From Hormiphora californensis (lineage: Eukaryota > Animalia > Ctenophora), in the NCBI GenBank assembly GCA_020137815.1, contig CM035360.1, forward strand, positions 4,278,001-4,342,000: a stretch of 64,000 bases of DNA, given 5' to 3'. Below are positions 28,380-34,215 of this stretch, in pieces. Made by a program: the position numbers and the translations under genes. The notes under the pieces were generated by a model. The model saw only the letters and a program-made list of their open reading frames with translations. It was not told where the DNA came from and did no database searches. Numbering within the stretch: position 1 is the first letter of the stretch; each line of letters begins with the position of its first letter.

Positions 28380-31300
28380 GTAAGAGGTAAACACTAAGCA
28401 ATAGAACTTGCTTACTACATAATGGTTATATTATAAGGGAGTGTTACCATCCTAAATCCATGGGTCCTCGCGGCTCTCTAAGTTAGTTAGTAACAAGCAT
28501 CGGATTCCCCGTGGTCCGGGGCATAATGTGTTGTTTACGTATCTAATCACCGAACAATGTTGCTAAAAACAATAGAGATCACTTTTACTGTTTACAAAGG
28601 AGTGGTAAATTCGTTGCTTGAAGCCTCTTTAACAAGCACCAGACTTTCGCCACGTGACTCTCGTATAAACACCAATATAAGCTGTAGACTTACTGTTACA
28701 AATCACCGTTTCGCTTTTCGTTATTTGAGTTTCTATTCGATATCGACACCAACACTATGCGCTACTCCAAGTCTACTACCTGCATCACTGAGGCAACTAC
28801 CTTCCCTTATTCTCCTCGTTCTGTCATGGTTATCGGGGACTCTATGATCAGGTATGTGCAGCCTACAGATAAAAATCATGAAGATAGAAATTTTGCCAGT
28901 TCTTTTCAATCTTTGCGTGTGCACCCATTTCCTGGAAAGAAAATACAGTATGTTGCAAATGCTCTTAAGGGAACTGTTGTCCCGGCTGACGCTGCTCTTC
29001 ATAGCATGTTCATTCTTGTAGGGACGAATAATCTTGAGCCGTCCCCTGACTTTGATTCAATGTTAAACAATTACATAGATCTGCTCAACGTTGCAAAGCA
29101 CAAGTTTCCTAATGCCACTATTTTCTGCATTCCCGTTCTCCCTAGGAGACAACATGCACAGCACGCTGCACATTTTAATGCCCTATTAAGCACGTTAACT
29201 GCCCCCTTAGAGGGTATTCATTTTTTACCAGGTATGGCTCTTAACTACTTCTCCTACGAATACTTCATATCACAAAGGGATGGTCTCCACTTGTCTCTTG
29301 CGGGCTACAGTTTTCTTCGTTCCTGCATTAAAGGAGTTGACTTGAGCTTTCACAACAGGAACTTTGAGTTGCCATGGGGACTTCGATCGTTCCAGCAGTT
29401 GTGCATCTTTGAGGCTAACAGTAACATTGATTTGAAGAAAACCCCTGCTGCAGCTGTGAAGAGTAAGACCCCTGCTACAGTTGCTGATAAGAAGATCCCT
29501 GTTGCAGTGAAGAAGACCCCTGCTACAGTTGCTGAGAAGAAGATCCCCGCTACAGTTGCTAAGAAGAAGATCCCTGTCGCTGAGAAGAAGATCCCTGCTA
29601 CTGTTGCTGAGAAGAAGATCCCTGTTGCAGTGAAGAAGACCCCTGCTACAGTTGCTGAGAAGAAGATCCCTGTTGCAGTGAAGAAGACCCCTACTGCTGT
29701 TGCTGAGAAGAAGATCCCTGTTGCAGTGAAGAAGACCACTACTACTGTTGCTGAGAAGAAGATCCCTGTTGCAGTGAAGAAGACCCCTACTACAGTTGCT
29801 GAGAAGAAGATCCCTGCTACTGTTGCTGAGAAGAAGATCCCTGCTACTGTTGCTGAGAAGAAGATCTCTACTGCTGCTGTAGTTCTACCTTGGAGCTGCT
29901 GTGACGCATCTTCAGCTCTGGATGTTATATTTGGATGCGATCCCGATACCCCTGATCGTGGCCCTGCAGTTGTTGTGAAGACCCCTGCTACAGTTGCTGA
30001 GAAGAAGATCCCTGCTACAGTTGCTGAGAAGAAGACCCCTGCTGCTGCAGTTGCTGAGAAGATCCCCGCTACAGTTGCAGTGAAGAAGACCCCTGTTGCA
30101 GTGAAGAAGACCCCTGCTACAGTTGCTGAGAAGAAGATCCCTGTTGCAGTGAACAAGACCCCTGCTACTGTTGCTGAGAAGAAGATCCCTGTTGCAGTGA
30201 AGAAGACCCCTACTACAGTTACTGAGAACAAGATCCTTGCAGTTGCAGTGAAGAAGACCCCTGCTCCAGTTGCTGAGAACAAGATCCCTGCAGTTGCAGT
30301 GAAGAAGACCCCTGCTCCAGCTGTTCAGAGAACAGCCCCTGCTTCAGTTATTCAGAATCAGAGGAAAGTCCCTGCTTCAGTTATTCAAAATCAGAGGAAA
30401 GTCCCTGCTTCAGTTATTCAGAATCAGAGGAAAGTCCCTGCTTCAGTTATTCAGAATCAGAGGAAAGTCCCTGCTTCAGTTATTCAAAATCAGAGGAAAG
30501 TCCCTGCTTCAGTTGTCCAGTCGGAGCTTGCAGTCAAGTATTCATCGTCCAGTTTAACTTTACCGAAGAAAGGTTCCAGAATCACTAAACAGTTGGTACG
30601 TTACTATATCATTGCCAATTCTAATTTTAATCTACACAGTCTCAGTGCAATGTAATAAGTAGTCAACTGTAATTTTCAGGTAGTCATACCACTAATAAAC
30701 AATTTTTAATTTAAGATTCAGAGAAGCAGTGGTCGTATTCACAGAAGAAAGGAGTTAGTTCTGAAACAACTGATAACAGTAGATGTACAGAAAGTAAAAC
30801 GTGAGGCTTGGCTTAACGTCATCTTTCGTAAAAAACACCTGGTTTTATGTAAAGGCGAGGAAATCGCTCCTGAGCCGTGTACGAGTTCTACGGAGATCAC
30901 TCCTAAGGTAGAGAATTGCATTCTTATTAAGATTAACACGTTCGTTGCAATGTCTTACTTCATTTTGGCTGAAATGTAATATTTCTTTAAACTTTTGCAG
31001 CGAAACCTGAAAACAAGGATTCACACAGAATACACGACACCAATTAGAAGAAGAGAGTTTGATAGCAGTTGCAGATGTATTGGAACTTGCAAATACCTGC
31101 TACAAAATACACAGGTGCGCCTATCACAAATAGAATCTATAGTAAAAACAAATTTTTTCTGCTATGCTAGAGTTATAATGTATGATCTACCAACACCCAC
31201 AGCAGGTCACTGTCGAGAGTACTGATACAGCTGAGGGAAGTCCACAGAAAGAAGTGACATTATCACAAGATGGGTGCATTGTGGTTGATGGAAACGTTGT

Positions 31301-34215
31301 ACTCACACAGATAGGCGGAGGAGGAGAATCAACGGTGAGTGCAATAAAAATAATGTCCTTTCCTTAATCCCACGGTTGACTGTCCCTGTCTAATTAATGT
31401 TTTCACATACTAGTTCTAGTTCTGTGATTGTGTTACTGATATTAGTTGATACAGCTGAGTGCCCAACGGGCACTCAGCTGTATCAACTAATATCAGTAAC
31501 ACAAGCACAGTACCGCCCGATTGTCATTAAGTGAATCATCAAGTGAAATGAAATCTTGATTTTAGTTTCACATTTTAAATGGGCAATAATCGTGTACACA
31601 ATTCCCGACTTCCAAATCCCAATTCTACCCACTGCAGGATCTTGATAAGAGTAACGGAACCTCGCCAACTGAGTGCATTTTACAGAAAGAAGAGACATCA
31701 ACTCAAGATACATGCATTGTGGTGGACGGCAAACTTGTACTGATACAGACTGGCGGAGGGGAAGGATCAACGGTTAGTGAACACTTCCATTCCCCATATA
31801 TGGGCTATGATCCTCACTCTTTCTCTATTGATTAAGTCTGTTTGAACATCAGTTCTATGATGCAATGCAGCATATATTTACTTACATAGGTAATCATCCT
31901 CCACAGGAAAATCTGGTGTCTAAAAAGCGGAAAAAGAGAGGTTCGAGGAAGAGGATTGGAAGGAAGGCCAAGCGCAGCAAAGTGGTTACTGATCAATGTG
32001 TGCAGCAGCCGGAATCAGTAGTTTCAGATGTGACAGATCCTGACACGAGTGAAGCTGATACAACACATATGGCCGAAGTAGTGTCATCGTCTAACGAATC
32101 ATTACCAATCATATCAACACAACTAACTCCGTCTCAAAAACGTGCAGCTAGAAACAAGAGATATAAATCGGGTCCTGGACGGGAGACAACCTATGCTGCA
32201 ATTAAGAGTTACAGATCGTCTGCTGAAGGAGCACTGTCCCAGAGCGAGGCTGTCAGAAAGTACCACAAGTCTGATGAGGGAATACGATCACGAAGTCAGG
32301 CTGTCGGAAAGTACAAGTTATCTACTGAAGGAGCCCAGTGCCAGAGGGAGTCTGTTACAAAGTATAAATCGTCTGCTGAAGGAGCCCAGTCCCAGAGGGA
32401 GGCTGTCAGAAAGTACCATAAGTCTGATAAGGGTAGAGCAACACAAGATAAGTATATATCATCGACAGAAGGTGCGGCAGTTATACGTAAGGCTAGGCAG
32501 CGTTATACAAACAGAGTGGGGAGGGACGTTTTGACAACTGCAGAGAAATACAGAAGGCGAGAAATAGTCAGGAAGGCTAGGAAGAATTTCCAGATGAGAG
32601 CTGCGCTAAAGGCAAAGAAGGCCATACAGAATATCCGGGCATATAGGAAGCATGTCGTTAAGGGCATATCTGAAGGTGGGGAGGGTTCTCTAGATCTAAG
32701 TGCCCTTCGTGCAGACCCAAAGAATAAAGAGGCGCTGGCCACTATTAAAGCACATAAGCCTGAAGTAAGTGCATGCAAGTTCTTCCTTTCTCATCGTGAC
32801 ACTGTAGTGAAAGATAGGAGAACCACATTCAATCCACGCCTTCCCCGGTCATCCCGATTCGGCAGTCTAAAGGATAGAGTTAAGGGCATCTTCAAAAGTA
32901 GAGCCTTCAGACAGCAGAGAAGCAACGTCAATTATCAGTTCTGCCTGTCAGACGTAGTACATCAATGCTTGGAACCAGCTACTGTACCCCAAATGAAGAA
33001 AGTGGCAAAAATACTCAACCCTGAAGATGATTGTGCAGGGAGAAGTAAGCGCCAGCTAAAACTACACGTTGTTAGAGAGGTTCAATATCGGATTATACGA
33101 CAGCGAGAAACTATGGTGAAGTGGTTTGGCATTGCTTTTATGAAACTAAAAGCCGTGGCAGATGACATACTTTCAAGACAGCAACTGTTAAAATCTAAAA
33201 AGGTAAAATTGTCATCTCATCCCCCTCTGAATATATATATAGCTTTCATACTGCCTCCCCCCGATACGAGTGACAGATAGAGGGATATAGGGAGAGATGT
33301 ATTTGCTTTTGTTATTTTGTCTAACGCACACACTCCCATACAGATCGGTGTCAACATACTTGGACTGTCTTGTCACGCGGCAGGTAGTGAGCCATTCTTC
33401 CCCAAATTTTCTTTCAAAGATGGAGTGGAATACACTGGGAGCAAGTCAGATCACCAGATCTGTGACGACAATTGTATTTGTAAGTCAGTTAGATAGAAAT
33501 AAAATGCCATAACAACTAAAGAGAATATAAGAATCGCATAATAACTAAAAATTCATTTCGCAGTAACTCTAACATTTTGATAATGTTAAATTTGCTTCAG
33601 CTGCATGTGATGCCGACGTTCTGGTATTCGCGGGAGAGTTGGCAAAACTGAAAGACATGGAGTTCAAGCAGGCCCGGAACTACGTTCACGAGGTGACAAA
33701 ATGCTCTCTGGATAAAGCTGTATCGCCAATGAAAGATATGTACATTCTAAATGCAGAGAGAACAAACCACCCTGAAGAGTGTCATACCCCATCTTCAAGC
33801 TGTGGGAGCCCATTTATCTGTATGCAGAAACTCGCCGTTCATTATAGAGATGCACGCAAAGTCTACAGGTAAATATCTGACTTTAACTATTAGTCGAGTC
33901 TATCAAAATCACCAGTCAGTACATAATAAACCGATCAGTATGTATCTTTGTGTCTCAATGAAACTTAATCAACCTTCGTCCTCTCAGGCAGCTTGCTACA
34001 ATGAAACACATTGATGCCCTCCTGTGTGACTTAGACACATCTTGTGCAATTGGAGATTTGGCGTATACCTTAAAGTTACTCGCCTACAAATTTCCAACAG
34101 CACCGTCAACGTTCAACCGTCTGACTTCTCAAGAGATAATCACTGAGGAGTCTATTCGGAAAAAGTATCAAAAACAGTATGATACTTACATGAACAAGGT
34201 TAGCTCCTCTCTCTC

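Follow-up and report, generated by a model that had tools for sequence, protein, structure and literature searches.

A predicted ctenophore Helentron-type protein that joins an SGNH esterase, duplicated QxGG mini-exons and a SENP-type protease domain

The window, a 64,000-nucleotide stretch of the Hormiphora californensis genome (contig CM035360.1, positions 4,278,001 to 4,342,000), carries on its forward strand a predicted gene of 10 exons encoding a stop-free protein of 3,849 aa in an HLE2 (Helentron-type) transposon. The domains run from an SGNH esterase through repeats and a linker to RepHel and a C-terminal C48 protease with its triad; all ten exons splice in frame without a stop, using CAG at each of the nine acceptors. 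By Pfam, an HUH Rep (Helitron_like_N, E 1.4e-25) and a PIF1 helicase (E 1.3e-25) share one protein with DUF6570 (E 2e-14), the HLE2 marker according to HELIANO; no AP endonuclease was found by Pfam in this protein. The closest relatives of the gene are ctenophore sequences. We sought the ends of the element (short TIRs, a 3' stem-loop, a T-T insertion site) with no second copy to fix them, and obtained one 12-nt inverted pair that has a mismatch and overlaps a host-like repeat, and several weak hairpins. An env-like gene was rejected, as tblastn with P0045 gave no match in the window.

The replicase part starts in exon 6 (31907-33202), which carries a basic NLS-like cluster, 17-aa repeats, and the beginning of the conserved N-terminal domain, and which can be aligned to P0007, P0024, P0046, and L001. 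Exons 7-9 (33344-34198; individually 33344-33479, 33601-33868, and 33988-34198) belong to the conserved, Cys/His-rich N-terminal domain; alignments of the relatives cross every junction collinearly, and in L001 and L003 this part is encoded in one genomic frame. Exon 10 (34371-41606) encodes DUF6570, acidic 25-aa repeats with SIM-like LxV[VI]S cores, the HUH Rep, the PIF1 helicase, and the C48 domain (40770-41603).

Exon 1 (28757-30595; 613 aa) encodes an SGNH/GDSL esterase domain followed by repeats that are rich in Lys, Ala, Val, Pro, and Thr and by 11-aa units. Its match to Lipase_GDSL_2 (E 4.8e-6) falls under the Pfam gathering score; the esterase blocks GDS, GTNN, and DGLH are present and are conserved in P0048, a homolog that is 65% identical over the esterase region and whose similarity extends to the exon 1 donor region. 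P0048 itself has been annotated as an independent protein made up of esterase and repeats. The initial annotation had labeled the repeats H1, a name that came from composition only; given that the homologous repeats of P0048 are acidic (net charge -9, versus +25 in exon 1), we rejected homology to histone H1.

Between the esterase exon and the replicase lie four small exons. Exon 2 (30722-30907, with an alternative acceptor at 30716; 62 aa, no family) and exon 3 (31001-31114; 38 aa) are predicted from splice sites and frame only. Mini-exons 4 (31206-31334; 43 aa) and 5 (31638-31772; 45 aa) have CAG acceptors and GT donors, one donor (ACG/GTGAGT, 9.8) scoring highest in 30500-34450 and the other (ACG/GTTAGT) scoring 6.2. 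Both are phase 0/0, so that inclusion or skipping of either leaves the reading frame intact. Our translations of these two exons agree exactly with the earlier ones, and their status as duplicates is borne out by blastn (76.6% over 107 nt, E 4e-18), with 74 of 96 nt identical in a gap-free exon alignment and no further copy in the window. The duplicated exon core contains 0 gaps compared to 21 gap positions in the adjacent duplicated intron, and of the six frames, the coding one gives the lowest dN/dS between the copies (0.44 overall, 0.25 in the core; Fisher p = 0.10). We conclude that the mini-exons arose by tandem duplication of what is likely a real coding exon. Intron 4 contains a near-perfect foldback (31419-31513, no strand assigned; ~42-bp arms, 3-nt loop) detected as a self-inverted blastn match; it is single-copy in the window, the intron has an RNA fold z of -9.2, and a search of Rfam over 28300-34400 gave 0 matches. 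No search returned a homolog of exons 2-5, and exons 2 and 5 had no usable match in the ESM Atlas, nor exon 2 in Pfam.

The splicing of exons 1-5 onto exon 6 is a prediction, and these exons may instead be spliced to the replicase rarely or never; exon 1 would then be part of a separate esterase ORF, the mini-exons would be skipped or confined to a minor isoform, and processing would be unneeded. Indeed, exon 1 left unspliced ends at an in-frame stop (30655) 60 nt beyond its donor. The stand-alone annotation of P0048, the symmetry of exons 4 and 5, the missing homologs of exons 2-5, the strong intron 4 hairpin that could affect splicing, and the fact that L003 and L013 begin at a Met in a basic cluster all point the same way. 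Against this, the ten exons join in frame with nine CAG acceptors, the exon core has stayed gap-free beside a gapped intron, dN/dS is low (though at the Fisher p given above), and exon 6 has its first Met only after the basic cluster. We regard the unjoined arrangement as improbable.

Each mini-exon ends in a SUMO-like tail motif at the position first reported, QIGG at 31308-31319 in exon 4 and QTGG at 31746-31757 in exon 5. The GG ends fall at model residues 751 and 796, which become the 753 and 798 of the initial annotation when exon 2 starts at 30716, and ~3,053 aa lie downstream of the second, as it had estimated. The tails of human SUMO1-3 are generally given as QTGG. The likeness of QIGG to the tail of yeast Smt3 is correct (Q95-I96...G98; PMC9603560), and QTGG is a known SENP tetrapeptide substrate (PMC3673099). 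The diglycine of each motif sits inside a run of 3-4 glycines. As they lie in tandem duplicates, we rejected counting the two motifs as independent; they represent one origin and one duplication, not two independent events.

Comparison of the copies cuts both ways. The Q and GG are kept in both, and the intervening residue is swapped between SUMO-type residues, a pattern that counts against a spacer without cleavage. Among the five codons that differ only synonymously, however, three lie in VVDG and none in Q or the first two glycines, which have identical codons; conservation between the copies thus takes in the hairpin, and no selection on QxGG itself was seen.

The chance of meeting such motifs is low by composition: in the 188-aa linker, 0.02 QxGG and 0.002 Q[IT]GG are expected, which also weighs against a spacer reading, although the composition model underestimates QxGG inside a glycine run and the motif was chosen after the fact. 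Twelve related proteins hold 6 QxGG in 23,350 aa, a chance rate of ~1 per 3,900 residues that counts against self-cleavage; one is a QTGG in the P0028 helicase, at a site where 9 of 10 sequences differ.

No SUMO fold precedes the motifs, as had been stated: neither mini-exon matches any Pfam family or a Ubl structure in the PDB, and exons 2-5 as a whole gave no Ubl match in Pfam or the PDB. AlphaFold2, applied to the exons singly, predicts only a low-confidence beta-hairpin before the glycines, and only 45 residues separate the two GG, short of the beta-grasp that a SUMO-type precursor requires. We therefore rejected a ubiquitin-like fold hidden in the single exons.

The C48 domain (Pfam E 9e-10) is predicted with a pLDDT of 93. 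The model is closest to Ulp1 (Z 17.6, rmsd 3.0, 202 aligned) and SENP1 (17.2), followed by the NEDD8 protease (14.8) and the viral enzymes pS273R (10.5), I7L (10.3), and adenain (7.9); the best 11 Foldseek rows are all SENP1/2, and its structural neighbors include NEDD8- and ubiquitin-cleaving members. Trp40, His154-Trp155, Asp173, Gln227, and Cys234 (domain numbering; Cys codon 41469-41471) can be aligned to SENP2 and relatives, so the His-Asp-Cys triad, oxyanion Gln, and Trp tunnel are all present. The domain shares these features and its fold with Ulp1/SENP (MEROPS C48, clan CE) but differs in its low identity (15-22%), an extra segment before the catalytic core, and a Gln-Cys spacing one residue longer than in the aligned relatives; this oxyanion-loop insertion may impair this copy of the protease, and it counts against any reading as an active deconjugase. 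By its model, the protease is of the Ulp1/SENP type and not of the pS273R or adenain type. The proposed analogy to adenain and ASFV pS273R, which cleaves its own virus's polyproteins at Gly-Gly-Xaa, is thereby weakened: the clan is shared, but the viral processors, including poxvirus I7L, have lower Z and mature structural precursors rather than a replicase.

These features bear on the proposal that the C48 domain cuts its own polyprotein after QIGG and/or QTGG, separating the NLS-bearing replicase from a fragment with the esterase and repeats; a second site would come from the duplication, and the domain could also be a deSUMOylase. The motifs lie at the esterase/replicase junction, 9-10 residues ahead of the basic cluster and no more than 10 residues from the start of the conserved replicase, a position that counts against a spacer reading. 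A cut after 796 would create an N-terminus within two residues of the annotated start of P0024, whose residue 11 is the first to align, with model residue 805; this is weak support, since that source starts its gene models at the first Met of the ORF (those of P0004 and P0005 start inside exon 10). The proposal further draws on the low composition-based expectation and on the alignment of both diglycine-tunnel Trp with SENP2. SENP1 does cut the bare QTGG peptide, with a kcat/KM of ~300 per M per s compared to ~4e7 for pre-SUMO1/2 (PMC3673099); if the tethered concentration is taken as 0.01-1 mM, this corresponds by arithmetic to half-times of 230-2 s, so a slow rate could suffice in cis.

In contrast, the fold class is SENP-like, and SENPs read the SUMO fold; Ulp1 cleavage is unaffected by Smt3 Q95G or I96G because recognition rests on the SUMO surface (PMC9603560), and the gap between the SENP1 rates on QTGG and on pre-SUMO1/2 also favors a deconjugase. 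The motif has a single origin, was picked post hoc, and occurs in a glycine run. In P0046 and P0024, as annotated, and in the DNA upstream of L013, the sequence before the basic region contains no QxGG. We consider self-cleavage a tentative proposal and rather unlikely.

The mini-exons might alternatively act in the SUMO pathway uncleaved, as a SIM-like strand (CIVV with the Ser/Thr/acidic stretch upstream) or as a pseudo-substrate occupying and regulating the element's own protease. CIVVDG is identical in both copies despite synonymous changes, and the part of the literature available to us defines SIMs by Val/Leu/Ile/Cys cores with acidic or Ser/Thr flanks (PMC12751080). But SIMs are loose motifs, only exon 5 passes the pattern, shuffled sequences match half the time (P 0.52), and the predicted hairpin would bury one strand edge. 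We judge this the least probable of the readings.

Searches for relatives yielded 22 loci (16 metagenome, 6 genome), two of which carry C48. One is cut off inside its exon 6 equivalent; the other, the distant L013, has neither QxGG nor an esterase in 1.38 kb upstream. None of the 22 matches exons 1-5 below E 0.1, and exon 6 and exon 1, used as protein queries, each found a single match that did not reach into the linker. The DUF6570 region of the window found no confirmed metagenome relative (0 of 64 candidates), nor did the clade alignment among viral contigs (0 of 30). L003 is an HLE2 with the same N-terminal domain and two OTU domains after the helicase, in the slot of C48. Of 9 proteins, 5 retain and amplify the SIM-like LxV[VI]S (1-31 copies), which speaks for a SUMO-directed deconjugase; by distinct cores, though, enrichment beats shuffling in only 1 of 7 (P0046), and L001 and L013 have none. 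The last two results count against it, and we rejected general SIM enrichment across the clade.

A captured accessory cysteine protease of a ubiquitin-like system is common to this element and to HLE2/Helentrons with OTU, VTD, UCH, or Peptidase_C48 domains, which share its RepHel and DUF6570 (PMC11417382, PMC9741609). Capture of C48 by Helitrons is already published; it is among the 20 captured domains in HELIANO (PMC11417382). Here, however, C48 lies within the RepHel ORF, whereas the four domains that share this ORF in HELIANO do not include it. The present element further differs in its predicted N-terminal SGNH esterase, nine introns, and lack of an AP endonuclease by Pfam; the portions of the HELIANO text and supplement consulted do not mention GDSL or SGNH. 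Kaonashi MULE transposons also bear an intact ULP-like C48 domain but are plant cut-and-paste elements, unlike this rolling-circle one. In the sections of that report that we consulted, the Arabidopsis Kaonashi proteases are judged unlikely to target SUMO, so SUMO is not an assured substrate for C48 here, and self-cleavage is not mentioned (PMC6117577). An SGNH/GDSL esterase stands upstream of a replication enzyme, as here, in non-LTR ORF1p (ZfL2-1, PMC3905857) and Terminons (PMC6431247); there it is a separate retroelement ORF, while in the present gene, splicing is predicted to join it to a DNA-transposon RepHel.

We give about an even chance to an explanation in which the protein is a SUMO/Ubl deconjugase with a hairpin-plus-glycine spacer and no cutting at QxGG. 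The duplicated mini-exons likely form this spacer between the esterase module and the replicase; QxGG would have arisen where a glycine run begins and would have persisted through constraint on the exon core as a whole. The C-terminal domain, presumably active and with SUMO as a putative substrate, likely strips host or element proteins of SUMO or a similar tag, and its purpose may be counter-silencing or anti-degradation. In the structural model, the rank of Ulp1, SENP1, and the NEDD8 protease above the motif-reading viral processors favors the deconjugase reading. By analogy, so would the OTU domains of L003 and the Helitron VTDs, which are active deubiquitinases/deNEDDylases according to the portions of PMC9741609 consulted. 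The accessible part of one preprint reports that piRNA-guided silencing in Drosophila needs SUMO (bioRxiv 533091).

In the literature searched, which included few subscription papers, we found neither self-cleavage by a transposon C48 nor a Helitron esterase fusion; in the parts consulted, HELIANO lists no substrate for Ulp1-like transposon domains, and VTD is the Helitron domain that has been assayed (PMC11417382, PMC9741609). One protein with an apparently intact SENP-type domain and candidate substrates offers a compact test. If the 3,849-aa polyprotein were cut by its captured protease at two exon-encoded sequences that mimic the SUMO tail, which we think doubtful, a membrane-active esterase would be freed from a nuclear replicase, and a transposon would for the first time be seen to use a SUMO protease for its own maturation, in cis and independently of the SUMO fold. 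DNA transposons would then use virus-like polyprotein processing, and SENP specificity could be rerouted to short motifs. If it is not self-cleaving, the element represents a ctenophore lineage of HLE2 that carries an esterase and, in frame, a SUMO-type deconjugase, pointing to counter-silencing.

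Ten predicted exons between 28757 and 41606 join into a stop-free protein of 3,849 aa. By Pfam, exon 1 encodes a GDSL/SGNH esterase, with a score under the curated cut-off, and exon 10 encodes DUF6570, a Helitron Rep, a PIF1 helicase and a C-terminal Peptidase_C48 (C48) domain. Because DUF6570 is described as an HLE2 marker in the parts of the HELIANO study consulted (PMC11417382), we assign the element to the HLE2 type of rolling-circle transposon. Exons 6-10 are confirmed by homology: three related proteins (P0024, P0046, P0028) and two related loci (L001, L003) are collinear with them over the junctions that each covers. 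The prediction of exons 2-5 uses only splice signals and reading frame. By their source names, the closest proteins come from Mnemiopsis leidyi and Pleurobrachia bachei (92% for the latter over RepHel, the Rep and helicase part), which makes a ctenophore host likely. P. bachei also has an esterase-repeat protein (P0048) with 65% identity in the esterase and similarity that reaches the exon-1 donor. Because sister RepHel families stand at 60-64% identity, a level matching that of this esterase, the comparison suggests that esterase and element move together. That exons 1-5 are not joined to the replicase is improbable in our judgment.

Exon 1 also contains a PWxxCxxSSxLDVxFGxDPDT island (~29870-29965) within low-complexity repeats; the island is kept in P0048, while the repeats around it change from basic in the window to acidic in P0048. 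Introns 6-9 (33203-34370) split a domain that L001:1-1880 and L003:981-2900 encode in one frame, and L001 in turn has breaks inside the C48 domain, which is uninterrupted in the window; both point to introns gained or lost in single lineages of these Helitrons.

The two mini-exons (31206-31334 and 31638-31772) lie in the 188-aa linker ahead of the replicase. Re-translation matched the initial annotation exactly, placing QIGG at 31308-31319 and QTGG at 31746-31757. Nucleotide self-comparison of the window bore out the duplication of the mini-exons, a tandem one with 76.6% identity over 107 nt; it found no further copy of the unit within the 64 kb. Both mini-exons are bounded by a CAG acceptor and a GT donor, with phase 0 at either end. 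Their final 96 nt align gap-free with 74 identities, whereas the duplicated intron behind them has 21 gap positions. Between the copies, dN/dS comes to 0.44 for 32 codons and to 0.25 for the 18-codon core; the proposed frame has the lowest dN/dS of the six, though with Fisher p = 0.10. The mini-exons are probably real, with mild coding constraint. Because three of the five synonymous-only codons lie in VVDG (the others are one Leu and the third Gly), the constraint read from the sequence bears on the predicted CIVVDG hairpin no less than on the glycines. Alternatively the mini-exons could act as a SIM or a pseudo-substrate, which we regard as the least probable reading. Intron 4 carries a near-perfect foldback (31419-31513; ~42-bp arms, z -9.2), single-copy in the window, and 13 nt of its arm recur in exon 4 (31223-31235).

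Composition predicts 0.40 QxGG across the entire protein; for the linker it predicts 0.02 QxGG and 0.002 Q[IT]GG. Six QxGG occur in twelve related proteins (23,350 aa in all, with some redundancy), so the motif in itself is common; one, in the P0028 helicase, is QTGG at a site that reads otherwise in nine other sequences. The unusual part is the location at the junction, which we estimate at roughly the 1-5% level, allowing for one origin only, for glycine runs and for a motif picked after the fact. This position speaks for the earlier proposal that the C48 domain cuts its own polyprotein after QIGG and QTGG, releasing the esterase part; weighed against the low prior that a SENP-type domain would cut its own chain, it leaves that proposal unlikely, though ahead of the other two alternatives.

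Relatives bear on the motif in few places. Only 2 of 22 fetched loci carry C48: L001, whose sequence starts inside the exon-6 equivalent so that the linker part lies outside it, and L013, a distant lineage (26%) that lacks an esterase and shows QxGG in none of its frames. Repeats of 1.38 kb precede the L013 ORF, whose starting Met falls within a basic cluster. P0024 and P0046 start at about the exon-6 position with no QxGG ahead, though gene models of this kind are often truncated at their 5' ends. In L013 the C48 domain also lies behind the helicase (7137-7562), possibly through independent capture.

The C48 domain retains His154, Asp173, Cys234, Gln227 and both tunnel tryptophans. Its Gln-Cys spacing is one residue longer than in the other rows spanning both in a 30-sequence alignment, a caveat for the predicted protease activity. 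The model (pLDDT 93) has SENP1/2 as its first Foldseek matches; a wide structure search gave Ulp1 Z 17.6, SENP1 17.2 and NEDD8 protease 14.8, above the viral processors ASFV pS273R (10.5), poxvirus I7L (10.3) and adenain (7.9; E 0.53 in a viral structure library). By this ranking the modelled enzyme falls among the proteases that recognise a ubiquitin-like fold. Domain and structure searches and structure prediction of the mini-exons agreed with the initial annotation that no such fold precedes QIGG or QTGG. In the published excerpts consulted, SENP1 cleaves a QTGG tetrapeptide at ~300 per M per s versus ~4e7 for pre-SUMO1/2 (PMC3673099), Ulp1 cleavage of Smt3 Q95G or I96G stays above 98% (PMC9603560), and pS273R processes polyproteins at Gly-Gly-Xaa (PMC7178854). 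Despite slow peptide cleavage, cutting of a tethered site would take seconds to minutes if its concentration were 0.01-1 mM, as assumed here, and self-processing is compatible with deSUMOylation alongside.

A ~570-680-nt MITE-like repeat family with inverted copies flanks the element (25500-28376 and 46180-48599), its 5' copy ending at a GA microsatellite just ahead of the element's 5' region. Downstream of the stop codon lie short tandem arrays, as well as 200-250-nt units in duplicated or inverted form (41819-42129 and 42532-44741). On the minus strand, 20231-21909 encodes a host-like helicase of the DEAD-box type that carries a HIT zinc finger, presumably DDX59-like by domain order, and 2325-4316 is a Gln/Pro-rich open frame of 663 aa with no Pfam match. 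Elsewhere, M. leidyi P0045 resembles an envelope protein: it has a hydrophobic N-terminus, a basic site of cleavage type and a hydrophobic stretch towards the C-terminus, and it has no Pfam match. Its annotation lies two locus tags away from that of RepHel-C48 (P0046), and one model fuses the two; together they may represent a Helitron that carries an env-like gene. P0045 has no match in the window. Helitron-like RepHel ORFs at 25-28% identity (L017, L018, L020, L021) lie on contigs labelled bacterial MAGs, one a 2.57-Mb Poribacteria contig, reflecting contamination or prokaryotic relatives.

C48 in Helitrons is already published (HELIANO text and Table S11, PMC11417382), as are plant MULEs with C48 (PMC6117577) and SGNH esterases in retroelements (PMC3905857, PMC6431247). 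HELIANO sampled two ctenophores; Pleurobrachia, Mnemiopsis and GDSL/SGNH are absent from its supplement searched, the last also from the text searched, and the relevant terms are absent from PMC12730594. Neither a Helitron esterase nor transposon C48 self-cleavage was found in the literature searched, subscription journals and Repbase reports lying mostly outside it.

The most likely reading, at about even chances, is that C48 removes SUMO or a related tag and that the mini-exons serve as a spacer. The long protein would enter the nucleus via its basic cluster, Rep and helicase would carry out rolling-circle transposition, and C48 would strip the tag from chromatin or from the complex of the element itself. 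Behind DUF6570, a SIM-like LxV[VI]S repeat (SIM as defined in the part of PMC12751080 consulted) is kept in five of nine proteins, in up to 31 copies; it is missing in the other four and in L001, and SIM enrichment overall is weak. The window has five acidic repeats with this core (35256-35630) and P0005, a related protein, has 31 (residues 268-780), possibly a poly-SUMO binding array. In flies, SUMO is required for piRNA-guided silencing according to the section of bioRxiv 533091 consulted, a role that in ctenophores is an assumption. L003 has the same N-terminal domain; its own start is a Met-basic cluster, and two OTU domains stand in place of C48, so deconjugases of different kinds occupy the C-terminal slot. 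For the VTD domains of Helitrons, cleavage of ubiquitin and NEDD8 has been shown (PMC9741609, as excerpted). The feature is real, and it lies in an unusual form of an already known type of transposon.
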